A model generated the notes under the pieces. That model ran no database searches. It saw only the letters and a list, made by a program, of their open reading frames with translations, and was not told where the DNA came from. The position numbers and the translations under genes are program-made. Shown piece by piece: positions 1,978 through 15,299 of a stretch of 20,000 nucleotides of DNA. Position 1 is the stretch's first letter. Each line of letters begins with the position of its first letter. Source of the stretch: an uncultured virus (IMG/VR IMGVR_UViG_3300028590_000001) (taxonomy: Duplodnaviria > Heunggongvirae > Uroviricota > Caudoviricetes); IMG/VR virus record IMGVR_UViG_3300028590_000001, one strand, 5' to 3'.

Positions 1978-2309
1978 GCGCAAAGCACGCAGCGGAGCAG
2001 CTGACGGAGGATCAGGTGCGGGCCATCTGGCAACTGCACCAGATCGGGGGCTGGAAGCATCGCCAACTGGCGGCGATGTTCGGGACGAGCATCGGGTCGG
2101 TCAGCAAGATCGTCACCGGCCGCACGTGGCGGCACATCACCGGGGGACACAGCGTCTCCCGGTACGGGGTGGAGAGCGAATACCGGGACGCGCACATCGC
2201 GGCGCGCCTGGCGCAGGGGGTCAGTAGTTATACCCGGATCGGCAGGGAGCTGGGTATTTCGCGGCAGGCCGTGTCACAGCGTGTCCGCCACATGGAGAGG
2301 AGTTCGTAG
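1974..2309 (+). CDS. DNA-binding protein with two HTH-like motifs
   Basis: HRQLAAMFGTSIGSVSKIVTGRTW and SYTRIGRELGISRQAVSQRV; ATGA overlap with polA; AGGAG RBS upstream. Confidence 0.8.
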   Translation: MSAKHAAEQLTEDQVRAIWQLHQIGGWKHRQLAAMFGTSIGSVSKIVTGRTWRHITGGHSVSRYGVESEYRDAHIAARLAQGVSSYTRIGRELGISRQAVSQRVRHMERSS

Positions 2310-4732
2310 TGCTGGGTGGTCTCACCAATATCTCGACGGTGCTGGGGTCCGCACCGGAGCCGACCGCCGAACTGGTCCGGCTCAAGTCCTTCGCACGGGC
2401 GTGCTGTCAGGCAGGGCTGTACCTGATGCTCATCGAGCCGGGCACGAAGTCCCCGGTCGACATGCGCAGCGATCGGCAACGCCGCGAGGAAGACGGCGTG
2501 GCGCAGGATGTGGCCCGCATGGAGGGCCGCGCCAACTGGGATCGGGTGAAGTCCAAGGGCGGGGTGTACCTCGCCACCAACGAGGAAGCCAAGATCACCC
2601 GCTACCTGGATCGGTACCGCAAGGTGTACGGCGCAGAGGCGGCAGTCAACTTCGCCATCGACGTGGGCCGCAGCGGGCTGATCGTCGTCGACTGTGACAC
2701 CCGTGCGCAGGTGGACGCCTTCCTCGAACATGTGGCGCTGGCCAACGGCATCGACCCGGCCGATGCCCCCGACCTTCCGCCCACGGTGAAGACGCCGGGG
2801 CAGCGGGACGTGGACGGGCAGTGGGCGCACAAGGACGGCGGCCACTACTACTTCACGGCGTCCGGCCCGCTGCCGGAGACCAGCGGCAGCGTCACCATGC
2901 CCGGCGGCTGGGTGGTCCTGTGGGCCAACCGGTACGTGCTCATCCCGCCGTCCGTCCGCCCGGAAGGGGCGTACCGGCTGGTCGGGCAGGACTACCCGGC
3001 CCCGGACTGGCTGGAGCAGATCGTCACCGACAAGGCGACCAGCTACATGCAGCGCCGCCTGGACGCCCTGGACAACACCGACCTGTCCGACGCGGTGAAC
3101 CGCTGGGCGGCGGACACCACCTGGGACGACCTGCTGTCCCCGGCGGGCTGGGTGCTCACCGCCCGGCAGGACAACTGCGGCTGCGACATCTGGACCGCGC
3201 CCGGCGACCACGCCAGCCCGAAGTCCGCCACCGCCCACGACACGCAGTGTTCGCTCGGCCGGTACACCCCGGACAACGCGCCGCTGCACATCTGGACGGA
3301 CTACCCCGGCGAGGCGCTCGAGGCGTGGACCGCACAGCGTGGCAAGACCATGAGCCGCCTCCAGGTGGCAGCGGCGCTGGAGTACGGCGGCGACGTGGGC
3401 AAGGCGATGCGCAGCCTGAACGTCATGCCGACCAGTACCGGAGCGCTGGGCTTCGGGGCGGACATCACCCGCGACATGGGCGTCAGTCTGGAGACCCCGC
3501 TGATGTTCGACCCGCAGCCCGACGAGGACGAGGAGGAGCCGGAGGCTGCTGATGCCGACCCTTTCCTGTCGCCCGGCGTAGCCGGGACTGACGCCGAACC
3601 CTCCGCTGCCGCAGCGGCAGAGGCACGCCCGGTCACGGGCGTACCCAACATCCAGCCGTTCGACTACTGGCGGGACTTCCCGCCGCCGGAGTTCGCTATC
3701 GCCGGGCTTCTGGAACACCGGGGCTTCACTTCATTGATCGGTGCACCGGGCGTGGGCAAGTCCGGCGTCGCGCTGGACATGGCCGCCGCGTTGGTCACGG
3801 GCAACCGCTGGATGGGCCGCGAGACCTTGCAGCAGCGGGTCCTCTACCTGCCGGGTGAGGGTCTGTCCGGCGCGGTCCAGCGGATCAAGGCGTGGGAGGC
3901 TGCGCACGACATGGACCTGGGCGGCGAGCTGTTCGTCGGCGACAGCATCATCCAGATCGGGGCGTCGAACGAGGCGTGGGCCGCCGTGGTGGCACGCATG
4001 CTCAAGTTCGACATCGGGCTGCTGATGCTCGACACGTTTGCCCGTGCGTCGGTGGGTATGGAGGAGAACTCTGCCACCGACGTGGGCAAGGCCGTGGCCC
4101 GCTTCGACCAGGTACGCGCCGCCACGGGGGCGGGCCTGATGGTGGTGCACCACACCCGCAAGGACGGCGGCAGCGGTCGCGGCTCCAGTGCCCTCAACGG
4201 CGCGCTGGACACCGAACTCCTCATCCGCGAGGGCGGCTGGTGGGACGACAACGATGGGCCGCCGCCCGGCCGCACGCTGGAAATGCTGGTGACCAAGCAG
4301 AAGAACGCCGAACAGCCCGAGCACGGCATTCCCATGCTGGCCGTCAAGGAGGGCGGGAGCTTCATCATGACGGGCCCCAACGGAATCATCGACGACCCGC
4401 TGGACGGCGTCGTGGCCCCGCGCGCCATCATCCCCGAATCCGTAGTCAGTGTGGCCATCAGGCTCCAGGAGTACGCCCTGCGGTTCACGCAACAGGGCCT
4501 CACCCGCAGCGAGTTCGCCTACGGCGTACCGATGGACGAGTTCACCGCCCGCCGCCGGGATCAGAAGACCGCCTGGAAGATGAAGGTGAACGAGGCCGTT
4601 GACCTGGGGATTCGGTACAACCTGCTCCAGACGCTGACCGGCACTCTCACCGGCGCGCGGTATGTGCCCGGCCTCACGACAGCAGATAGCGCTATGGCGC
4701 TGTGGGCCAAGGAGGGCACCCGCACCGACTGA
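2309..4732 (+). CDS. Bifunctional primase-polymerase N-terminal domain fused to a RepA/AAA_25-type helicase
   Basis: LIVVDCD, TVKTPG, GGHYYF and YVLIPPS prim-pol motifs; central Cys/His cluster (CGCDIW...H...H..C); acidic linker DEDEEE; Walker A GAPGVGKS, Walker B LLMLDT, VVHHTRK and RGSSAL. Confidence 0.92.
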   Translation: MLGGLTNISTVLGSAPEPTAELVRLKSFARACCQAGLYLMLIEPGTKSPVDMRSDRQRREEDGVAQDVARMEGRANWDRVKSKGGVYLATNEEAKITRYLDRYRKVYGAEAAVNFAIDVGRSGLIVVDCDTRAQVDAFLEHVALANGIDPADAPDLPPTVKTPGQRDVDGQWAHKDGGHYYFTASGPLPETSGSVTMPGGWVVLWANRYVLIPPSVRPEGAYRLVGQDYPAPDWLEQIVTDKATSYMQRRLDALDNTDLSDAVNRWAADTTWDDLLSPAGWVLTARQDNCGCDIWTAPGDHASPKSATAHDTQCSLGRYTPDNAPLHIWTDYPGEALEAWTAQRGKTMSRLQVAAALEYGGDVGKAMRSLNVMPTSTGALGFGADITRDMGVSLETPLMFDPQPDEDEEEPEAADADPFLSPGVAGTDAEPSAAAAAEARPVTGVPNIQPFDYWRDFPPPEFAIAGLLEHRGFTSLIGAPGVGKSGVALDMAAALVTGNRWMGRETLQQRVLYLPGEGLSGAVQRIKAWEAAHDMDLGGELFVGDSIIQIGASNEAWAAVVARMLKFDIGLLMLDTFARASVGMEENSATDVGKAVARFDQVRAATGAGLMVVHHTRKDGGSGRGSSALNGALDTELLIREGGWWDDNDGPPPGRTLEMLVTKQKNAEQPEHGIPMLAVKEGGSFIMTGPNGIIDDPLDGVVAPRAIIPESVVSVAIRLQEYALRFTQQGLTRSEFAYGVPMDEFTARRRDQKTAWKMKVNEAVDLGIRYNLLQTLTGTLTGARYVPGLTTADSAMALWAKEGTRTD

Positions 4733-4746
4733 CCTGTACTGATGTG

Positions 4747-4776
4747 TTGCACATAGCACGGTGCCCGTGTTATGTT
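4747..4776 (+). promoter_or_regulatory. SigA-like promoter P1 with palindromic operator CACGGTGCCCGTG (4757-4769)
   Basis: TTGCAC-N18-TATGTT in an intergenic gap; the same architecture recurs five times in the window. Confidence 0.75.
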
Positions 4777-4823
4777 TGCTCCACTCAGTTGCACCACCAA
4801 ACACCACCGAGAGGACCCACCCC

Positions 4824-5696
4824 ATGGAGCACGTACTCCCCGGAGAACTTCTGGAACTCGACTGGCCCATCATCCGCACCGACTTCGTGTCGGTGACGCC
4901 GAAACTGGCGGACAAGTGGCTGGGCAGCCAGACCCGCAACCGCAGCGTCAACCGGCCCGCTGTCCTGGGCTACCGGCGCGACATGCTGGACGGCCGGTGG
5001 ACCTTCACCGGCGAACCGATCCAGTTCGACATCGAAGGCCGCCTGATCAATGGCCAGCACCGGCTGACGGCGCTGTCTCTGCTGGACGGCCAGATCGACA
5101 CCATCACCTTCCTTGTGGTGCGCGGTCTGCCGCCGGAGGCGCAGCTGTCCATGGACCAGGGCCGCCGTCGCAGCTCGGGCCAGCAGCTCCAGCTCACCGG
5201 TTTCAAGAACGCCACTGCCATGTCGTCGGGCATCCGCCTGTACATGCTGTGGAACACCGAGCGACTGTTCACCCGCAAATGGGACGACGCGGTCAACATC
5301 AGCACGGCCAGCATCCTGGCGTTCGCGCAGGCCAACCCGGAGCTGATCGAGCACGCCAACTCCAAGTACGGCGTCATCCGGGATGCCGGACTGCGGCACT
5401 CGTCCGGCATGGCGTTCGTGCTCAAGCTGGGGCTGGACAACGCCGAGACGGTGAATCTGTTCTTCGATGAGCTGCACGCCCTGGTGAACCAGCCGGAGGG
5501 GTCGGCGCTGCTGGCCCTCAACCGTCGGCTGACCCGCGCCCGCCTGGAAGGGCTCAAGCTGTCCGATGTGGATCAGCTGGCCTTCCTGGTGCGCACCTGG
5601 AACCACTGGATCAACGGGACCCGGGCGGGCAAGCTCCAGCGCCCCAAGGGCGGCGAGTGGAACGACGAGAACTTCCCGAAGGTGGAAGGCGTATGA
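4824..5696 (+). CDS. ParB/Srx-superfamily (DGQHR-like) protein, 290 aa
   Basis: VTPKLADKWL...NRSV...DMLDGRW...GEPIQFD..GRLINGQHRLTAL...MDQGRRRS; GAGAGGA RBS upstream of ATG 4824. Confidence 0.75.
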   Translation: MEHVLPGELLELDWPIIRTDFVSVTPKLADKWLGSQTRNRSVNRPAVLGYRRDMLDGRWTFTGEPIQFDIEGRLINGQHRLTALSLLDGQIDTITFLVVRGLPPEAQLSMDQGRRRSSGQQLQLTGFKNATAMSSGIRLYMLWNTERLFTRKWDDAVNISTASILAFAQANPELIEHANSKYGVIRDAGLRHSSGMAFVLKLGLDNAETVNLFFDELHALVNQPEGSALLALNRRLTRARLEGLKLSDVDQLAFLVRTWNHWINGTRAGKLQRPKGGEWNDENFPKVEGV

Positions 5697-6159: not shown

Positions 6160-6185
6160 ACAACGCACGTCATCCGTGCTAAGGT
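6157..6185 (+). promoter_or_regulatory. SigA-like promoter P2 with operator CACGTCATCCGTG (6166-6178), probably giving a leaderless transcript
   Basis: TAGACA-N17-TAAGGT; ATG 6193 lies 7 nt after the -10 box. Confidence 0.7.
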
Positions 6186-6192
6186 GATCACC

Positions 6193-6327
6193 ATGACCAA
6201 CCACCACGAGAACCGCGAACCCACCCCGGAGGAGAAATTCTGGGGCGCGTTCTTCGCAGCCACGATCGGCATGTATCTGCTGGTCATGGTGATCATCCCG
6301 TCCATCCGATTCATGAACGGACTGTGA
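6193..6327 (+). CDS. 44-aa single-pass membrane protein (not in the ORF track)
   Basis: MTNHHENREPTPEEKFWGAFFAATIGMYLLVMVIIPSIRFMNGL*; the stop overlaps the helicase GTG (GTGA). Confidence 0.7.
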   Translation: MTNHHENREPTPEEKFWGAFFAATIGMYLLVMVIIPSIRFMNGL

Positions 6328-7970
6328 GACGCATGAACCGCCAGCTTCGCCCGTACCAGCAGGAGGCCGTGGACGCCGTCCTGACCAACTGGGGCAACGA
6401 GGTCCGCCGGACAGCCGTCGTGCTGCCCACCGGCACGGGCAAGTCCACGGTGATAGCCAGCGTCGCCGCCGAGTCCGCTCGGCTGGGGCTGCGGGTGGTC
6501 ATGCTGGCCCACCGCGCCGAACTGCTCGACCAGATGGCGCAGACCGTGGGGCAGGTCGACACCCTGCTGCCGCCGGTGGGCATCGTCCGGGCCGAGACCG
6601 ATGAGTCCCACGCGCAGATCGTGGCCGCCTCCCTCCAGACGCTCACCAACGACAACCGGCACGCCGCACTCGGTAAGCGGGATGTCGTCCTGTGGGACGA
6701 GGTCCACCACGGTGGGGCCGACAGCTGGCGGCGGGTGCTGGACGACTTCGGTACGCCGTTCTTCTGTGGGTTCACCGCCACCCTGCGCCGTGAAGACGGC
6801 AAGGCCCTGCGCGAGATCATCGACACGGTCGCCTACGAGAAGAACCTGCGGTGGGCCATCGACCAGGGGTACCTGGTGCGGCCCACCGGGCTGACCGTCA
6901 AGATTCCCGACCTGGACCTGGGCAAGGTGAAGACCGTCGCCGGGGACTTCCAGCAAGGGCAGTTGGCCGAGGTGATGGAAGGCGAGACCGACGAGGTGGT
7001 CAAGGCCATCGCGCTGCACTGCCAGCACCGCCGCCCGATCATCTTCGCCGCCAGCGTGCTGGCAGCGAACGATATCGCGGTGGACCTGATGCGCTACGGC
7101 ATCAACGCCGAGGCCGTCACCGGCAGCATGTCCTACGCTGAGCGGCAGCCGGTGTACCAGCGCTACCGCAGCGGCACCACGCAGGCGCTCGTCACGGTGC
7201 AGGTGCTGACCGAAGGCGCGGACTTCCCCATGTGCGACGCCGTCGTGATCGCGCGGCCCACCCAGTCGCAGAACCTGTACAGCCAGATGGTCGGCCGGGC
7301 CCTGCGGCTGTGGGAGACCGTCGACGAGTACGGTCACCCCGTCGAGAAGGAAGACGCGCTGGTGCTCGACCTGGTCGGCACGTCGCGCGTGCTCAAGTTG
7401 GTCACTCTGTCCAGCTTGGACAGCGGGGCCACCGGCCGCATCGTGGACACCGACGGCGAAGACCTTCCGCCGGAGGACTGGGACGAGGCCCCCGAGACGG
7501 GCGGCATCACCCGGGTGGCGTCCAAGCGGCTGGGCCCGCTGGAGACCATCGGCATCGACCTGCTCGGGCCGTCCGAGACGAACATCCTGTGGCTGACCAC
7601 GCCCAAGGGCGCGCCGTTCGTACAGCCGCAGGGCGAGGACTGGTTCGTCTTCCTGTGGGAGGGCGCGCCGGGCATGTTCCGCGCCGGGGTGATGAACCTG
7701 CGCGGCGACAAGAAGGGCGAGTGGCTGGACGGCGGGCGGGAGTGGCCGCTGATCGACGCCAAGGGCATCGCTGAGGACTACATCATCGACGCCGGTCTGG
7801 CGTACCCGCTGCGGACCGCCGCCTGGCGCAAGCACCAGCCGCCGTCCGACGCGCAGCTCCGGTTCGCCCAGAGCCTGAGCATCCCCGATGCCGCCCTGAT
7901 GACGAAGGCGCGGCTCTCCGACGAGATCAGCATGGCGCTGGTCGCCAACCGACTGGACACCGCACGATGA
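6324..7970 (+). CDS. Superfamily 2 DExH-box DNA helicase
   Basis: Q motif LRPYQ, motif I LPTGTGKS, II DEVHH, III TAT, V LTEGAD, VI QMVGRALR. Alternative start ATG 6333. Confidence 0.95.
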   Translation: MRRMNRQLRPYQQEAVDAVLTNWGNEVRRTAVVLPTGTGKSTVIASVAAESARLGLRVVMLAHRAELLDQMAQTVGQVDTLLPPVGIVRAETDESHAQIVAASLQTLTNDNRHAALGKRDVVLWDEVHHGGADSWRRVLDDFGTPFFCGFTATLRREDGKALREIIDTVAYEKNLRWAIDQGYLVRPTGLTVKIPDLDLGKVKTVAGDFQQGQLAEVMEGETDEVVKAIALHCQHRRPIIFAASVLAANDIAVDLMRYGINAEAVTGSMSYAERQPVYQRYRSGTTQALVTVQVLTEGADFPMCDAVVIARPTQSQNLYSQMVGRALRLWETVDEYGHPVEKEDALVLDLVGTSRVLKLVTLSSLDSGATGRIVDTDGEDLPPEDWDEAPETGGITRVASKRLGPLETIGIDLLGPSETNILWLTTPKGAPFVQPQGEDWFVFLWEGAPGMFRAGVMNLRGDKKGEWLDGGREWPLIDAKGIAEDYIIDAGLAYPLRTAAWRKHQPPSDAQLRFAQSLSIPDAALMTKARLSDEISMALVANRLDTAR

Positions 7971-8283: not shown

Positions 8284-8289
8284 CACTCA

Positions 8290-8307
8290 CACCACCACCA
8301 CCACCAC
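8290..8307 (+). repeat. (CAC)6 tandem repeat in the leader of the 8323 gene
   Basis: caccaccaccaccaccac directly upstream of GAGAAAGAG and ATG 8323. Confidence 0.85.
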
Positions 8308-8322
8308 GAGAAAGAGAAATCC

Positions 8323-8730
8323 ATGGAAGACGCTACGACCGCCGCACTGGACGCCGCAGCTGCGAAGGCCAAGGAAGCCATCGAGAACGGCACCATGACC
8401 CAGCAGCTTCTCGACACTCTGATCGACGAGTTCCAGGAGGGTGTAGACGCTGACGAAATCGCAGAAGAGTTCGACAAGCACCGCGATGCCGTCTGCCGGT
8501 ACCTGGACTTCATCGAGAAGCACCAGACGCTGGAGGCCGTCACCACGCTGCTCGGTCTGGACCCTCCGGGCATCATCTCGCTGATGGGTGCGCTGCTGCG
8601 GTTCTGGGGCGAAATGCTGCGGGACGGGGAAGACGTCACCCTGGGCGACATGGCGCGCCTGACCTACCACTCCATGGAGTGCGGCGGTGCTGACGACTGC
8701 CCGGTCTGCGCCACCGAGGACCCGGCGTGA
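8323..8730 (+). CDS. Acidic helical hypothetical protein with a C-terminal H...C...CPVC motif
   Basis: 135-aa ORF with a purine-rich RBS and GC3-rich frame. Confidence 0.8.
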   Translation: MEDATTAALDAAAAKAKEAIENGTMTQQLLDTLIDEFQEGVDADEIAEEFDKHRDAVCRYLDFIEKHQTLEAVTTLLGLDPPGIISLMGALLRFWGEMLRDGEDVTLGDMARLTYHSMECGGADDCPVCATEDPA

Positions 8731-9221: not shown

Positions 9222-9419
9222 ATGGTGGAAGTCAGCGTGACGGTCAACATCATGGTGGGCGACGCGGAGATGGAGCTGCGCCGCACGGCGAACATCGTGC
9301 AGGTGGGCAACGTGAACGGCGCAGTGCGCGCCTTCATGCGGCAGGCACACCGCGCGGTCGCGGGCGCATACGCCGACCAGGAGCCCAAGGGGTATGACCC
9401 GGGTGACGATGACGAGTGA
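9222..9419 (+). CDS. Hypothetical protein
   Basis: 65-aa ORF packed into the operon, GGAGG upstream. Confidence 0.7.
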   Translation: MVEVSVTVNIMVGDAEMELRRTANIVQVGNVNGAVRAFMRQAHRAVAGAYADQEPKGYDPGDDDE

Positions 9420-9561
9420 CCCGTACAGCGGGCCGGACATCCTGGAGGCCCGCATCCCGGCTGACCTGCGGCCGTGGCTGGGCATGGCCATCGTGCTGCA
9501 CGACCATGGACCGGACGAGCCCTGCACCCGCCGGTGCAACTCCTACGTGATGGAGGACTGA
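9409..9561 (+). CDS. 50-aa hypothetical protein with an HDH...C...C motif (not in the ORF track)
   Basis: MTSDPYSGPDILEARIPADLRPWLGMAIVLHDHGPDEPCTRRCNSYVMED*; fills the gap; TGATG coupling to the next gene. Confidence 0.65.
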   Translation: MTSDPYSGPDILEARIPADLRPWLGMAIVLHDHGPDEPCTRRCNSYVMED

Positions 9562-9698
9562 TGGAAGGCGAAGCCACGGAGGAGATGGAGGACTTCACCG
9601 GGTACATCTGCGGTCAGACCGTGATGCGCAACGGGGAGACGTACATCTGCCCTGAATGCGATTACCCGCCGGTCGACTGGGACGACGAGGAGGACTGA
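9561..9698 (+). CDS. 45-aa acidic zinc-ribbon-like protein
   Basis: YICGQ...YICPECDY; GGAGG RBS, TGATG overlap. Confidence 0.65.
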   Translation: MEGEATEEMEDFTGYICGQTVMRNGETYICPECDYPPVDWDDEED

Positions 9699-10808
9699 TT
9701 GGGCAGCATGCTCGACCTCACCGGAGAGGTCGTCTACGCCACTCCGCTCTACGGTTACGAACTCCCGCCGCCCATTCCCGGGCGGCGGGAGCCGACCTTC
9801 AAGGCGGGTAAGTACAGCCTGCCGAACCCCAAGTATCCGTCGAAGTTCAAGAGCTTCACGCGCGCCAGTTCGGTGGCGAAGTCCCTGGAAGACACCGAGC
9901 TGCTGTCCCTGTGGCAGCAGCGGCAGATGCTGATCGGGCTCCAGCGCAGCACCGACATCATGGCCACGCTGGACCAGGTGCTGGACGAGCACCATGAACA
10001 GCAGCCGGACGACACGAACATCGCGAAGTCGTTGCGCCAGCCGTTGAACAGCCTGAGTCTGCTGGCGCAGGAACGTGCGGGCAGCGGCCGGGCGGCAGAG
10101 TTCGGCACGGCGGTCCACGCATGGTGCGAGTGGTACGACCACGGGATGTGTCACATGACCGAGGTCCCCGCTGAGTTCCGCCCGTGGGTGATCGGTCACC
10201 GGCGTGCGCTGGCCCGCGCCGGACTGCACGTCGACAGCTGCTGGACGGAGCGCATCGTGCTCAACAGCAAGTACGACATCGCCGGAACGCTGGACCGGCT
10301 GGTCTGGTGCCCGGACGGGAAGCTGCGGCTGGGCGATATCAAGACCAGCAAGGGCATGGACTACAGCTGGATGTACTTCGCCATCCAGATGGCGATCTAC
10401 TCCACGGCGGACTACATCCTGGCGCTGGACGGCAGCAAGTGGGAGCCGATGCCCGCCGTCGAGCAGGACGTGGCGCTCATCAGCCACCTTCCCCGGGAGC
10501 GCCCGGAGGAGTCCCGCATCCAGCCGATCAATCTGGACTACGGCCGTCGCGCACTGGAGGTGGCCATGGCCGCAAGGGAACTGCGCGCCGAAGCGGCAAA
10601 ACAGGCTAACACCGTGCCTTGTGTGATAGGTTGGGCAACGGTAGCCGAGGAGCGCCGGGCCACGGCCAAGCACCTCGTAGAGATTTCCGCCACCGAGGAC
10701 GAACTCGCTCTCGTGTGGGAGGAATACCGGGACGTCTGGACAGACGAACTCACCCGGATCGGCTGGGAATCCCTCCAGTCAGCAACGCAACGCAACGCAA
10801 CGCACTGA
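9699..10808 (+). CDS. PD-(D/E)XK (RecB/Cas4-like) phage exonuclease
   Basis: GTAVH, TERIV, IAGTLDRL, GDIKTS and QMAIY motifs. Start is TTG 9699 or ATG 9708. Confidence 0.88.
   Translation: MGSMLDLTGEVVYATPLYGYELPPPIPGRREPTFKAGKYSLPNPKYPSKFKSFTRASSVAKSLEDTELLSLWQQRQMLIGLQRSTDIMATLDQVLDEHHEQQPDDTNIAKSLRQPLNSLSLLAQERAGSGRAAEFGTAVHAWCEWYDHGMCHMTEVPAEFRPWVIGHRRALARAGLHVDSCWTERIVLNSKYDIAGTLDRLVWCPDGKLRLGDIKTSKGMDYSWMYFAIQMAIYSTADYILALDGSKWEPMPAVEQDVALISHLPRERPEESRIQPINLDYGRRALEVAMAARELRAEAAKQANTVPCVIGWATVAEERRATAKHLVEISATEDELALVWEEYRDVWTDELTRIGWESLQSATQRNATH
10782..10805 (+). repeat. (GCAAC)4-GCAC pentanucleotide tandem repeat
   Basis: gcaacgcaacgcaacgcaacgcac immediately before the exonuclease stop codon. 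Confidence 0.9.
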
Positions 10809-10828
10809 ACGCCCAAAGAGGAGAACGC

Positions 10829-11293
10829 ATGTCTGACAACCCCTTCGGCAAGTCCACCGCTGCCAAGGAGAAGCCCACCATCGCCAGCCCCAAGGGCGAG
10901 AACGCCGCCCCGGCCACCAACGACCCGTTCGCGTCGCCGTCCGGCGTCAGCGGCGAGTACATCACCAGTTTCGTCGGGAAGCTGCTGCTCGTGAAGCCCA
11001 CCGAGTACGTCCCCGAGATGAACACCGCCAAGGGCAAGAACGACGCCGTGCGTGTCGACCTGGCCGTCCTCGATGACGCCGACGAGCCGGGCCGCGTGGT
11101 CACCGGTGTGCTGCTGTTCCAGTCGGCGCTCAAGCGCGAGGCGAAGGCCGTGCTGGAATCGCCCAGCCCGTACCTGCTGGGCCGCCTGGTCAAGACCACC
11201 ACCGGTGGCGGTAACGACCTGTACCTCTTCGAAGAGGGCGCGGACGACGACAAGAACCTGGCGCGCCAGTTCCTCGCGGCTGCCACCCTGTAA
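10829..11293 (+). CDS. Putative ssDNA-binding/recombination protein
   Basis: AGAGGAG RBS; flexible N-terminus (DNPF, DPFA) followed by a beta-rich core; lies between the exonuclease and the resolvase. The function is inferred from context only. Confidence 0.55.
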   Translation: MSDNPFGKSTAAKEKPTIASPKGENAAPATNDPFASPSGVSGEYITSFVGKLLLVKPTEYVPEMNTAKGKNDAVRVDLAVLDDADEPGRVVTGVLLFQSALKREAKAVLESPSPYLLGRLVKTTTGGGNDLYLFEEGADDDKNLARQFLAAATL

Positions 11294-11340
11294 GACCTGC
11301 GGCCCGTGCGCGCTGATTGGACCCGCGCACGGTACGCACT

Positions 11341-11378
11341 GAACGGCCCGGCGGCCCCGCCATACCGCCGGGCCGTTC
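11341..11378 (+). terminator. 14-bp perfect stem-loop (terminator or processing site)
   Basis: GAACGGCCCGGCGG / CCGCCGGGCCGTTC with a 10-nt loop, intergenic; weak U tail. Confidence 0.6.
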
Positions 11379-11404
11379 TCATACCCACCCACGAGGAGAA
11401 CCCC

Positions 11405-11968
11405 ATGATCGTCGCCGCCATCGACTCGTCCCTGTCGAACACAGGGCTCGCCCGGCTCGAGGTCATCGACCACGGCCCGGAGACGGCCGGGCAGCGCAAG
11501 GCGGTGTGGCGCACCATGACGGTCAAGTCCGAACCGGCCAAGGACACCGAATACCATCCGGGGCAGCTCAAGCGCATGCGCAACATCTGCAAGTCGATGG
11601 CCGAGTTCATCCAGGATGCCGACATGGTCGTGATCGAGGCTCCCGCCTACAGCCGGGGCATGGGCATGTCGCACGAGCGCGCCGGGCTGTGGTGGATGCT
11701 GTACGCCGCTGCGGGCGCGGTCATGCACGGTGATCCGCTGGTCATCAAGCCGAACCTGCGCGCCAAGTACGCCACCGGTAACGGTGGCGCTGGCAAGGAC
11801 ACCGTCATGCTGGAGGCTTCCCGCCGGTACGCGGACGCGCCCATCCGAAACAACAACGAGGCCGACGCCGTGCTGCTGGCGGCGATGGGTGCCCGGCTGG
11901 CGGGCATGGAGATCGACAAGGTGCCGCAGACCCACCTCGCCGCGCTCAAGACGCTGCTGCTGGCCTAA
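11405..11968 (+). CDS. ruvC: RuvC-like Holliday junction resolvase
   Basis: IVAAIDSSLSNTG, VVIEAP, KYATGNGGAGK, NNEADA; GAGGAG RBS. Confidence 0.9.
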   Translation: MIVAAIDSSLSNTGLARLEVIDHGPETAGQRKAVWRTMTVKSEPAKDTEYHPGQLKRMRNICKSMAEFIQDADMVVIEAPAYSRGMGMSHERAGLWWMLYAAAGAVMHGDPLVIKPNLRAKYATGNGGAGKDTVMLEASRRYADAPIRNNNEADAVLLAAMGARLAGMEIDKVPQTHLAALKTLLLA

Positions 11969-11989
11969 GCACGCATAGCGTGGTAAGCT
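11961..11989 (+). promoter_or_regulatory. Promoter P3 with operator CACGCATAGCGTG (11970-11982)
   Basis: TGGCCT-N17-TAAGCT with extended -10 TGn; same palindrome geometry as the other four; weak -35. Confidence 0.6.
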
Positions 11990-11995
11990 GGAGCC

Positions 11996-12069
11996 GTTCG
12001 GAAGATCGGACATCCTTTCTGGTGGTGAGTACGACAACGGACCCGGTCCCCCTGCACCGGGTCCGTTTT
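11996..12069 (+). ncRNA. Candidate ~75-nt small RNA with an anti-Shine-Dalgarno/anti-leader core
   Basis: Bounded by promoter P3 and a 12-bp terminator hairpin; no credible ORF; contains TCCTTTCTGGTGGTG (12013-12027). The 5' end is estimated. Confidence 0.45.
12036..12069. terminator. Intrinsic terminator, probably bidirectional, between convergent ruvC and holin
   Basis: AACGGACCCGGT-CCCCCTGC-ACCGGGTCCGTT, ending in a TTTT run on the + strand. Confidence 0.8.
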
Positions 12070-12074
12070 CGTGT

Positions 12075-12338
12075 CTACACCTTGGTCGCGCCCAGGGGCC
12101 CTATCCACCGCTCCAGCCATGCATTCACCTGGGGGATGGCCATCAGCCGCGCGGTGACGCCTGCCGCCGCCAGCGCCCCGGCCACCCACGGAACAGCGGT
12201 GGACAGCCCCAGTTCAGCCACCACGAACGGGACCACCAGCATCAGCCCCACCGCCGCCTGCACCACGGTGCGCAGCACTGCCCGGCCGGGGTACTGCACC
12301 TGCGTCGGTTCGATCTCGAATGGCTCGTCGGAGGTCAC
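12075..12338 (-). CDS. Holin
   Basis: 87 aa, two hydrophobic segments, TQVQYPGRAVLRTVVQ N-terminus, GTGA overlap with lysin A. Confidence 0.8.
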   Translation of the reverse strand: MTSDEPFEIEPTQVQYPGRAVLRTVVQAAVGLMLVVPFVVAELGLSTAVPWVAGALAAAGVTARLMAIPQVNAWLERWIGPLGATKV

Positions 12339-13198
12339 TTGCCCAGCCCCTGAATCAGCGCGACGAGTTCATCCCGCAGCGCAGCCAGGTCGGCGCGCGT
12401 GGCGACACCGTCCACCAGGCTCGGCTTCGCCGGGGTGGCGCGCTCGGCATCGGCCAGCTGCGCCCAGCCGGTCGGCTTGAGCGGTGCCTTGCTTCCGGTG
12501 CGCTGGTCCTTGCTGCCGGTGCCCGCCAGCTGATCCAGCGCGTCACCGGTGTGCTGGTCGACCCACCCCAGCAGGATGCCCGCCTGCTCGGCGGTGCCGT
12601 CCGGCTTAGCCACCTTCATCTCCCAGACCGCCTTCGCGATCTCTTCGGCACTCGCCATCTCGTTGTCCTCTCCCTTGGTGTACTTCTCCACGGCGTTCGC
12701 GAACACATCCCACGGGAAGCCGGGGCCGACATCGGTATGCGTGCCGATGCCCAGCTCATCGGTGACATACCGGTGATCCGAGATGCCGTCCGCGTACCAG
12801 TACGGCGGTGCGATGACGGTGGTGTCGAACTTGTACTTCCGGCAGTCCTGGACAGCCAGGTACGCCGCCACGTCGATAGCGTCGCCCATGTTGTCCAGCC
12901 ACTGCTGGCGTGACCAGCCTGCGCGGCTGCCCGCGAAGCAGAGGTTGATGGTGTACGGGTTCGCATCCAGCACCGACCAACTGGCGTAGTCGGTGTTCAC
13001 CACGTCGCAGACCACCACGCTGTTGTCGATCGTGTAGTGGTAGCTGACGCCGTTGGCCGGGTTGTTCAGGTAGGCCGCCAGCGACTCCGCTGTGCCGTTG
13101 CCCTCCTGGGTGTGCAGCAGGAAGTTCGTGACGCGCGCACCGCCGCGCCCGCTGTACGACTTGCCCATCCTGTCGATCTCTGTGAACTCAGGTGCCAT
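12335..13198 (-). CDS. lysA: Lysin A, N-acetylmuramoyl-L-alanine amidase (Amidase_2) with a C-terminal domain, 287 aa
   Basis: LLHTQEG, VSYHY, SWSVLDANPYTINLCFAG, DHRY, HTDVGPGFPWD; GGGAAGGA RBS before ATG 13198. Confidence 0.92.
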   Translation of the reverse strand: MAPEFTEIDRMGKSYSGRGGARVTNFLLHTQEGNGTAESLAAYLNNPANGVSYHYTIDNSVVVCDVVNTDYASWSVLDANPYTINLCFAGSRAGWSRQQWLDNMGDAIDVAAYLAVQDCRKYKFDTTVIAPPYWYADGISDHRYVTDELGIGTHTDVGPGFPWDVFANAVEKYTKGEDNEMASAEEIAKAVWEMKVAKPDGTAEQAGILLGWVDQHTGDALDQLAGTGSKDQRTGSKAPLKPTGWAQLADAERATPAKPSLVDGVATRADLAALRDELVALIQGLGK

Positions 13199-13242
13199 GC
13201 CGGTTCCTTCCCTGTGGCCTGCCCCGAGCATATCGCACGGAG

Positions 13243-13273
13243 TTGCACAAACCCACGGAATCCGTGCTAAGGT
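13243..13273 (+). promoter_or_regulatory. SigA-like promoter P4 with operator CACGGAATCCGTG (13254-13266)
   Basis: TTGCAC-N19-TAAGGT in the divergent intergenic region. Confidence 0.75.
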
Positions 13274-13306
13274 TGAACCACACCACACCTCGAGAGGAAG
13301 CCCCCC

Positions 13307-13693
13307 ATGCACCCCACCAACCCGGACGATCCGTTCGCCGTCCGCCTGACCGCTGTGGCCACCGTCACGTACACCGTAGGGCTGATGGTGGAAGCCCCCA
13401 CCGTCGACATGCCCGTGCCCCACTCGGACATTCGCATGATCCCCCAACGCGCGGAGGTCGTGGTCGAGCGCAACCTGGAGACCGGCGAGTTGTTCGTGTA
13501 CCGCCTGGAGATCACCGGCAAGCGCGCCAAGAAGGATGGCACGCCTTCGCTGTTGTCGATCTCCGGCCAGTGGTACCGCCGTCACAACTATGAAGGCGGC
13601 ATCACCTACGGCCACCACCAGTGCGCGGACCACCCGTACGTGTTGAACCTGATCGACAGGGCCATCGCCGTGGTGCGGGAGACCCTGCGGTGA
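13307..13693 (+). CDS. Hypothetical protein
   Basis: 128-aa ORF with GAGAGGA RBS. Confidence 0.8.
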   Translation: MHPTNPDDPFAVRLTAVATVTYTVGLMVEAPTVDMPVPHSDIRMIPQRAEVVVERNLETGELFVYRLEITGKRAKKDGTPSLLSISGQWYRRHNYEGGITYGHHQCADHPYVLNLIDRAIAVVRETLR

Positions 13694-13872
13694 GCGCGGC
13701 GCGGAAGGAAGCTCTGGCCCAGTTGCGCGTCGCCGTGGCGTCAGCATTCGAGGCGCGGCCGAATACCCCGGAATGGCAGCAAGCCCACCGCACTGTCGCG
13801 CTGGCGCAGGTGCACGCTCTGGACGCGGGCGCGACGGCTGCCGAAATCCTCGACGCGAGCGAAGGGTTCTAG
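13690..13872 (+). CDS. Hypothetical protein (60 aa, helical)
   Basis: GTGA overlap start. Confidence 0.7.
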   Translation: MSAARKEALAQLRVAVASAFEARPNTPEWQQAHRTVALAQVHALDAGATAAEILDASEGF

Positions 13873-13874
13873 CC

Positions 13875-14099
13875 GTGGGAAGTCTGGACAACCGTGACCA
13901 CTACCTGGTCGCCGCGCTGCTGCACCAGCGCATCAAGCCGCTGCGCCCGCTGGAGAATCCCGCGCACGTCGAACAGTTCAACGAACTGCGCGGACTGAGC
14001 GCCCGGCTGTGCGCTGCCCTGGAGGACGACGCCGTGCGCCCGCCGAGGGTCGTCTTCCAGCCGCAGCGGTTCATCGAACTGGTCATGCGGGGCGAGTGA
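13875..14099 (+). CDS. Hypothetical protein (74 aa)
   Basis: GTG 2 nt after the upstream stop, GAAGGG RBS. Confidence 0.7.
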   Translation: MGSLDNRDHYLVAALLHQRIKPLRPLENPAHVEQFNELRGLSARLCAALEDDAVRPPRVVFQPQRFIELVMRGE

Positions 14100-14605: not shown

Positions 14606-14636
14606 GGTTTCACCACCAACCGAGAGGATCACCACA

Positions 14637-15299
14637 ATGCACGCCAACCCCTTCGCCGCCCGCCTCGCCACCGCTGCCGCCGCCACCCAGGGCACAGCGC
14701 GCCGGGACCGCCTGGACCGGGTGGAGATCATGGAAGGCCCCGCCTTTCACTTCACCGGTCCGGCCCCTGTCGACATGATCACCGAGCGACAGGCCGCGCT
14801 GGTTCGGACACTGCTGGTGGAGCGCAACTTCCGCAGCGAGCAGCGCCCGGCGTGGATCGCTCGAATCCAGCAGATGGCCACGGTCAACGGCACCATCAGC
14901 GCGATGACCAAGGTTCAGGCCAGCGCGTTCATCGAGTACGCGTTCACCATGCCCGTGCGGAAGATCGCAGAGGCGGCCCCGGCGGTAGACGTCCCGGAGG
15001 GCCGCTACGCGGTCGACATCAACGGCGTTCTGTGGTTCGTCCAGGTGGACTGCCCGGCCGAAGGCCGCTGGGCCGGGCACACCTTCGTGCGCCGCCAGTT
15101 GGGCAGCGACACCCAGAACCTGAACCGCGCGCAGCGGGTGCTCGTCCTCAAGGCCATCGCCGAGGCGGGCATCAAGGAGGCCACCATCCGCTACGGCCAC
15201 GAGCTGGGCCATTGCGGCAAGTGTGGTCGTGAACTGACCAATGAGGCCAGCCGCACGGCGGGCATCGGCCCCAAGTGCGCAGCTAAGAGCGGGTGGTGA
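14637..15299 (+). CDS. Protein with a C-terminal DUF6011-like zinc finger
   Basis: CGKCGRELTNEASRTAGIGPKCA; GAGAGGA RBS before ATG 14637. Confidence 0.8.
   Translation: MHANPFAARLATAAAATQGTARRDRLDRVEIMEGPAFHFTGPAPVDMITERQAALVRTLLVERNFRSEQRPAWIARIQQMATVNGTISAMTKVQASAFIEYAFTMPVRKIAEAAPAVDVPEGRYAVDINGVLWFVQVDCPAEGRWAGHTFVRRQLGSDTQNLNRAQRVLVLKAIAEAGIKEATIRYGHELGHCGKCGRELTNEASRTAGIGPKCAAKSGW

Follow-up and report, generated by a model that had tools for sequence, protein, structure and literature searches.

The c4 RNA of phages P1 and P7 targets ant mRNA and sets immunity, while sar of phage P22 and OOP of phage lambda are short phage transcripts with promoters of their own, each encoded opposite the single target that it represses by pairing; so they are presented in the excerpted text of a 2025 review (PMC12197685), which contains no word beginning "mycobacteri". 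In Actinobacteria, the excerpted account of the mycobacterial B11/6C RNAs (PMC10470900) describes a conserved, chromosomal, trans-acting family with C-rich loops, which represses many genes through pairing of pyrimidine-rich unpaired stretches with their purine-rich ribosome-binding sites. Cluster A mycobacteriophages L5, D29, and StarStuff make abundant intergenic small noncoding RNAs, detected by RNA sequencing and Northern blotting and reported in the excerpted source with no known function (PMC5712189). Regulatory small RNAs (sRNAs) of phages infecting Actinobacteria are almost unknown. Here, we analyzed a 20,000-nucleotide (nt) stretch, termed the window, that comprises bases 18846-38845 of the 46,634-bp IMG/VR virus record IMGVR_UViG_3300028590_000001 (67% G+C; completeness estimate, 70%); the source record is an actinophage-like virus. 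Our subject is the 106-nt gap between a ruvC-like gene and a holin-like gene, where the lysis cassette (- strand) converges on the replication module (+ strand). An initial annotation had proposed that this gap encodes a trans-acting RNA of about 75 nt that occludes ribosome-binding sites of a co-regulated gene set. The proposal fared unevenly: the pairing predictions and the genome search spoke for it, and the conservation check spoke against it. A stand-alone sRNA of about 74 nt that blocks initiation regions is a tentative reading of the gap, roughly level with the reading of its parts as relics of a module junction.

RESULTS

Elements of the ruvC-holin gap

Two syntenic relatives recur throughout: Nocardia phage NTR1, the closest cultured relative (RuvC, 46% amino acid identity), and G009 (locus L027), a complete metagenomic relative in which the whole module is syntenic (protein identity, 43-70%). 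Positions are those of the window unless stated otherwise. The gap holds the following elements.

11960-11968, + strand: CTGGCCTAA at the -35 position, formed by the last RuvC codons and the stop codon
11969-11983: operator-type inverted repeat GCACG-N5-CGTGG, with 9 of the 10 core positions of the family GCACG-N5-CGTGC
11981-11989, + strand: extended -10 element TGG-TAAGCT, the right operator arm supplying the TGn
11995-11997, + strand: predicted transcription start, placed by the spacing behind the -10
11996-12011, + strand: small 5' hairpin of 5 pairs with a 6-nt loop in the predicted 74-nt fold
12013-12028, + strand: core (TCCTTTCTGGTGGTGA / UCCUUUCUGGUGGUGA), the reverse complement of the phage initiation-region consensus (CACCACC + GAGAGGA)
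12036-12069: terminator hairpin of 12 pairs with an 8-nt loop; UUUU on the + strand, weaker GUUGUCGU tail on the - strand

As the initial annotation had claimed, a copy of an operator-promoter cassette lies in the gap, with GCACG-CATAG-CGTGG at 11969-11983 followed by TAAGCT at 11984-11989. The underlying pattern, CACG-N5-CGTG-N1-3-TANNNT, has 12 copies in the 46.6-kb genome compared to 0.02 expected (100 Markov-1 simulations, maximum 1), and so, judged by its sequence, the gap cassette is no chance match. Relatives carry the pattern as well (the IMG/VR relatives G009, 13 copies, G004, 7, G001, 4, and G006, 5; NTR1, 18), which gives a total of 59 in six phages, and the reversed pattern used as a control found no match in any of the five relatives tested. 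An open reading frame (ORF) starts within 100 nt downstream of 54 of the 58 other cassettes; the remaining 4 comprise three homologous promoters of a conserved structured RNA, described below, and one NTR1 cassette with a 120-nt leader, and none of the 58 is clearly dead. The gap cassette is the sole copy among the 59 that faces only about 45 nt and a terminator, with no ORF or conserved RNA downstream. Its 13-mer CACGCATAGCGTG is not repeated exactly (1 match at ≤2 mismatches versus 1.03 expected); it therefore belongs to a degenerate family of which it is one diverged copy. The same -10, TAAGCT, is also present in gene-driving cassettes of G004, G006, G009, and NTR1.

The sequence preceding the gap operator has a counterpart in NTR1, whose cassette at 64449 shows the same 9 letters upstream (CTGGCCTAG; CTGGCCTAR), with CTGGCC and likewise without TTGCAC. 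Over the 30 nt from -35 to -10, the two cassettes are identical at 25 positions (score of 35; none of 500 shuffles as good, the highest reaching 26). The NTR1 cassette precedes the conserved structured RNA; because a similar cassette thus drives a conserved RNA, the unusual -35 of the gap copy need not mean a dead promoter. In actinobacterial promoters, a -10 element plus TGn alone is often enough.

Behind the cassette, 11990-12035 contains just shadow frames antisense to real genes, in keeping with the initial view that no credible ORF is present. The core enclosed there, at 12013-12028, does match phage leaders by reverse complement, and the three leaders originally cited (4802-4815, 14610-14629, and upstream of ATG 8323) are present as described. 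The initiation form CACCACC..GA(A/G)AGGA-N7-9-ATG is found at nearly all genes led by a Shine-Dalgarno (SD) sequence in this phage and its relatives. The genome search likewise turned out as anticipated: with ≤3 mismatches allowed, the core has no second match (0.11 expected), and its near-matches are mostly antisense to real initiation regions. Its 8-mer TCCTTTCT has a single occurrence on the two strands of the genome, where 0.22 would be expected; the expectation for the gap is 0.0005. The likeness to the 16S rRNA tail noted initially was found in an actinobacterium, as 12013-12020 equals the last 8 letters of the Kribbella 16S rRNA gene (..GGATCACCTCCTTTCT), letters that we take to be the 3' end of the mature 16S rRNA as well. 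The - strand of the core, TCACCACCAGAAAGGA, has the form of an initiation region, but its ATG (12013-12011) is fused to the SD sequence; because of this fusion, and because only a RuvC-antisense shadow frame lies behind it, the - strand of the core is no gene start, to judge from its layout. The leader of gene 8323-8730 (8286-8325) has an ACC-repeat run, CACACCACCACCACCACCACGAGAAAGAG, before the start codon, an extreme version of the CACCACC motif.

The 12-bp hairpin with a T run was found where it had been annotated, with arms at 12036-12047 and 12056-12067, a loop of 8 nt, and the T run at 12066-12069; a G+C-rich hairpin followed by a U run, i.e., the hallmark of an intrinsic terminator, thus spans 12036-12069. 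A generic terminator scan did not list the 12036-12067 hairpin and listed only the small one at 11996-12011. The predicted fold of 11990-12075 has an energy of -37.5 kcal/mol (z score, -2.29; 6 of 200 shuffles as good) and that of the modeled 74-nt RNA (approximately 11996-12069) an energy of -29.7 kcal/mol (z score, -1.57), with the core unpaired between the two hairpins. When cofolded with the leaders, the linker containing the core pairs with 9 of 9 cassette-linked leaders in the minimum-energy structures, which agrees with the pairing initially proposed. The free-energy difference on cofolding (ddG) ranges from -11.2 to -21.0 kcal/mol over the nine leaders, with a mean of -15.7, compared to -6.9 (standard deviation, 2.0) for the shuffled linker (0 of 200 as good). 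Two of the predicted targets are as follows.

4779-4826, + strand: predicted target leader of gene 4824-5696, with cassette 4757 upstream; ddG of -21.0 kcal/mol
14610-14639, + strand: predicted target leader of a DUF6011 gene, with cassette 14586 upstream; ddG of -16.8 kcal/mol

A search of Rfam 15, which includes 6C, gave no match to the candidate; the best hits (E values of 0.26-7.7) were to unrelated eukaryotic microRNA and long noncoding RNA models, far below thresholds.

Searches for relatives

Megablast and blastn searches of the gap against 50,697 phage records found no match to the gap itself, and the exact pattern GCACGGAANCCGTGCTAAGGT had 0 matches in IMG/VR. The exact 16-mer was found in 23 IMG/VR loci, which are counted as chance because none of them is blastn-related to this genome. 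RuvC-based searches of viral, metagenome, and genome collections retrieved no relative above 58% amino acid identity, and the syntenic relatives among those retrieved were L027/G009 and NTR1 only. Eight records share the cassette; RuvC is encoded only in G007, at 31% identity, too distant for use. None of the public runs listed for 10000-14000 is recorded as RNA. Four public runs compared over 10500-13500 all gave contigs of a near-identical phage, with 11867-12022 unchanged; these copies are uninformative on selection because they are near-identical to this phage, and contigs do not reveal RNA ends. The phage occurs at wastewater or activated-sludge sites. In one low-depth (2.7) wastewater contig, the terminator loop carries an insertion of CCCCC after 12047 and the T run a T>G change at 12068; these changes may be assembly errors.

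The possibility that the + strand of the gap is a coding-gene remnant was rejected, as a 16-nt match to G009 (AAGCTGGAGCCGTTCG) lies in unrelated coding contexts in which only KLEPF is shared. The left arm of the terminator is identical to a G009 cassette at 15 of 17 positions, a likeness that is unproven, with 9 of 500 shuffles scoring equally.

The cassette family

The full cassette consensus reads TTGCACAAC-GCACGGAAyCCGTGC-TAAGGT-GGTCaCACCACCAAccGAGAGGA-N8-ATG, and most cassettes precede the near-identical leader GGTCaCACCACCAAccGAGAGGA-N8-ATG. Cassettes in the window lie at 4757, 6166, 11970, 13254, and 14586. That at 6166-6195 has an ATG just 7 nt past the -10 (TAAGGTGATCACCATG), and the mRNA from which the first helicase-operon gene is translated may have no leader or almost none. 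The helix-turn-helix (HTH) protein encoded at 1959-2309 is one candidate regulator of the regulon. Within an unannotated 567-nt stretch of NTR1 (MF477236.1, 25257-25823), a - strand cassette (25821) and the initiation region behind it lead into a 76-codon ORF, probably a missed gene. The 59-cassette regulon is solid and useful by itself, and since NTR1 is cultured, it is open to bench study.

A conserved structured RNA outside the window

No ORF lies behind the cassette at genome position 9738 (- strand), which is followed by noncoding sequence of about 190 nt and then by tRNA-Trp. The noncoding sequence belongs to a conserved structured RNA or long 5' leader with the following members.

9530-9716 (approximate genome positions), - strand: conserved structured RNA or long 5' leader in this genome (G000, locus L147)
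9395-9625, - strand: homologue in G009, locus L141
64469-64747, + strand: homologue in NTR1 (MF477236.1)

Conservation of this structured RNA extends over about 110 nt in the three phages, for which protein identity is only about 45-65%. In NTR1, the matching stretch (82% identity over 87 nt; E = 3.6e-19) belongs to a 300-nt intergenic region without annotation. A consensus fold predicted from the three sequences contains 25 pairs; both partners have changed in 3 of these, and two compensatory pair changes stand side by side in one helix. The RNA has no match among Rfam families. The RNA precedes tRNA-Trp in G000, where this tRNA (anticodon CCA) is encoded at 9445-9518 (- strand), and a protein gene in G009 and NTR1; G009 has tRNA-Phe instead. 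Its cassettes have TATGCT/TACGGT as the -10 and lack the usual TTGCAC. This structured RNA is a better-supported noncoding element than the gap candidate, and it is testable in the cultured phage NTR1. That the gap transcript might be a truncated version of it was considered and rejected, with global alignment giving a z score of <1 for the gap versus about 5 for G009 and a far higher one for NTR1; the apparent colinearity of the two in a MAFFT alignment found no support from global alignment.

Neighboring genes

The genes of the two converging modules in the window are listed here.

Replication module, + strand: family A DNA polymerase
1959-2309, + strand: HTH protein, replication module
2309-4732, + strand: primase-polymerase/helicase, replication module
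6324-7970, + strand: helicase, replication module
9699-10808, + strand: exonuclease, replication module
11306-11968, + strand: ORF of the RuvC-like Holliday junction resolvase (PHROG 159; E = 3.7e-39), last gene of the module
12075-12338, - strand: 87-amino-acid protein with two hydrophobic stretches (PHROG 4316, unknown function), homologue of NTR1 Orf68
12335-13198, - strand: endolysin (Amidase_2)

The true RuvC start is probably ATG 11405, which is favored because an initiation-region-like sequence lies upstream of it; the stop codon, TAA, is at 11966-11968, and the gene is syntenic in G009 (locus L027) and NTR1. The 87-amino-acid protein is a putative holin, hence its holin-like label. The endolysin probably starts at ATG 13198 and not at the start of a 518-amino-acid "lysin" ORF (12335-13891), which is over-extended; an SD sequence, GGAAGGAA, precedes ATG 13198. 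A separate + strand gene at 13307-13693 has its own cassette at 13254, and the divergent region 13198-13310 contains a - strand -10-like sequence, CGTGCGATATGCT, for the lysis operon, which resembles the -10 of the structured-RNA cassette.

DISCUSSION

According to the sRNA reading, the gap would form a small transcription unit of its own within the tail of the ruvC operon. The diverged operator-promoter cassette would start an RNA near 11996, and the shared intrinsic terminator would stop it near 12069, yielding a 74-nt product in which a small 5' hairpin and the terminator hairpin flank an open linker of about 24 nt. This linker (UCCUUUCUGGUGGUGA) copies the 16S rRNA 3' tail and is complementary to the stereotyped initiation regions (CACCACC...GAGAGGA); given this complementarity, the RNA would bind the 5' leaders of phage mRNAs and, on these and possibly host leaders, keep ribosomes off. 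What the sequence shows is the elements of the gap, the family to which its cassette belongs, and the computed fold and pairing energies; firing of the promoter, accumulation of the RNA, its pairing in the cell, and a lowering of translation are inferred. The co-regulated gene set named in the initial annotation may be controlled in this way, and pairing would reach nearly every SD-led gene of the phage, not only the cassette regulon, because the initiation regions are alike.

Several points argue for such an RNA. A promoter type that is otherwise always used stands 50-75 nt 5' of a terminator, and the sole open stretch of the predicted product is a copy of the 16S tail that matches the phage's own leaders. 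A single unit would also account for both the + strand cassette and the inverted initiation-like core, for which the relic explanation needs two well-kept relics.

Other findings weigh against it. In the conservation check, the core and cassette are absent from the equivalent place in both syntenic relatives (G009/L027 and NTR1), and the RuvC-lysis junction is different in each of the three syntenic phages. G009 has an 86-nt gap with a canonical A-tract/hairpin/T-tract terminator, without a cassette, whose alignment to the gap studied here is at shuffle level (score of 15.0 versus a shuffle mean of 15.8); NTR1 has an extra - strand gene there, Orf69 (83 amino acids), which follows the holin-like Orf68 and overlaps the RuvC end with its own end. 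RuvC is 2 residues longer in this phage than in NTR1 and G009, and other RuvC relatives have a + strand gene behind RuvC. As to the promoter, the -35 position is occupied by CTGGCC, not by the TTGCAC of the family (or a TTGACA/TAGACA-like sequence, about 9 nt 5' of the repeat). The terminator is explained without an sRNA, because convergent operons need one anyway. In the predicted fold of a 276-nt ruvC 3' context, the core is paired with upstream ruvC sequence (z score, -1.21). By duplex energy alone, 163 of 18,642 windows of 31 nt, at about 60 loci, pair with leaders equally well; real initiation regions lie opposite about 18 of these loci, on the other strand, and the remaining loci are G-rich sequence antisense to coding DNA. 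Moreover, an RNA that represses genes with the same promoter type as its own has no obvious regulatory logic.

The likeness of the core to initiation regions was gauged with a profile built from 35 cassette-linked regions of five genomes, with the candidate excluded and NTR1 not in training. By this profile, the - strand of the core ranks 10th genome-wide, at 5.3 bits and E = 2, a further point on the negative side; each of the nine hits above it is a real gene start, and it outscores two real starts. Among the other five genomes, 38 of 41 hits of at least 5.3 bits are gene starts, the 3 exceptions all being in NTR1, and 3 non-start hits in 41 therefore correspond to about 0.8 to 2 chance hits per genome of this size. 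The likeness of the core is thus not significant genome-wide, and its weight comes from its location. The non-start initiation-like hits of NTR1 include one in the major tail gene, within its 3' end (25227), and one between divergent genes (59436), and neither has a cassette-plus-terminator setting; the G009 gap has no profile hit at E ≤ 50.

Much of this evidence is shared by an explanation that we consider possible to a similar degree, namely, that the gap is junction debris around an ordinary bidirectional terminator, in which the cassette and the inverted initiation-like sequence are young leftovers of lost genes and the hairpin alone is functional. The boundary between replication and lysis modules would have been rearranged; the junction varies in the three syntenic phages, with Orf69 present in NTR1, and the 2-residue-longer RuvC suggests a joint in its last codons. 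A deletion remnant would be expected to look like the core, whose - strand reads as a gene start (TCACCACCAGAAAGGATG) with the ATG fused to the SD sequence and only a shadow ORF behind. Also in favor of debris, the element is not conserved, the usual -35 is missing, the profile hit has an E value of 2, and convergent operons require the terminator in any case. Yet debris presupposes independent relics on the two strands, both of them well kept (operator, 9 of 10; -10 intact; SD, 8 of 8), whereas none of the 58 other cassettes looks dead and the gap copy resembles a specific working variant of NTR1. The - strand initiation region would, besides, lie downstream of the - strand terminator without a promoter of its own. 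That last circumstance, with the element beyond the terminator, also bears on a functional - strand element, i.e., a tiny gene or ribosome-loading site at the 3' end of the lysis transcript; despite a perfect SD sequence, AGAAAGGA, in a CACCACC context, we regard such an element as highly improbable, since the ATG directly abuts the SD sequence, compared to 7-9 nt at real starts, and the sole frame is a shadow ORF antisense to RuvC and the preceding gene.

It is rather unlikely that the stretch is a 3' untranslated region (3' UTR) element of the ruvC operon mRNA without promoter activity of its own, which would act, if at all, within the long transcript or a processed fragment, by folding back on leaders of the same polycistronic mRNA or by an effect on mRNA stability. 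The stretch does lie between the RuvC stop and the terminator that has to end + strand transcripts, the -35 lacks the usual TTGCAC, and the core pairs with upstream ruvC sequence in the 276-nt context; a 3' UTR element leaves the intact operator and extended -10 unexplained, however, and the long-context fold is no better than shuffles (z score, -1.21). Less probable still is that the palindrome serves only as an operator, that is, a regulator site, decoy, or roadblock at the end of the ruvC operon, with the complementarity arising by chance. Its core agrees at 9 of 10 positions and an HTH protein is encoded in the same module (1959-2309), but the strong terminator 50 nt downstream would make a roadblock redundant, and the kept -10 and the unique 8-mer would go unexplained. 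With as little probability, the product may be a mimic of the 16S tail that is made from an operator-controlled promoter and titrates SD sequences generally, in early phage leaders and host mRNAs; translation would then move to messages independent of SD pairing, e.g., the suggested leaderless mRNA at 6166-6195, and the element would be a post-transcriptional timing switch in an actinophage.

If the gap is debris only, it amounts to an ordinary terminator region where two modules meet at a boundary prone to recombination. If the sRNA is made, it would represent a compact, easily tested case in which a phage turns a copy of the ribosome's anti-Shine-Dalgarno tail against stereotyped leaders, and a large promoter regulon under operator control would gain a translational arm.

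The architecture of the candidate, with a promoter overlapping the end of an upstream coding sequence, a short RNA, and a shared intrinsic terminator, is like that of sRNAs of the DapZ and MicL type, which are enterobacterial and Hfq-dependent. As the excerpted accounts of the known systems have it, the candidate would share with c4 the pairing of a small phage RNA around the ribosome-binding site through a stretch accessible in the folded RNA; unlike c4, it would be transcribed from a promoter of its own and fit an entire class of leaders, and it comes from another host group with no sequence relation. Short length, a promoter of its own, and repression by pairing would align it with sar and OOP (PMC12197685), whereas these are cis-antisense to one target and the candidate is encoded at a distance from its putative targets, with which it would pair imperfectly, with bulges and G-U pairs. 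The L5, D29, and StarStuff RNAs (PMC5712189) have the same actinophage intergenic origin, with no sequence relation to the candidate, for which, unlike them, a function is proposed. A parallel in mode of action within Actinobacteria would be B11/6C (PMC10470900), likewise trans-acting, with a pyrimidine-rich unpaired stretch set against the purine-rich ribosome-binding sites of many genes; unlike B11/6C, the candidate is phage-borne, and its seed is a linker copying the 16S tail (UCCUUUCU) plus GGUGGUGA instead of C-rich loops. If real, the candidate would work in the mode of c4 and B11/6C; it falls outside every described RNA family.

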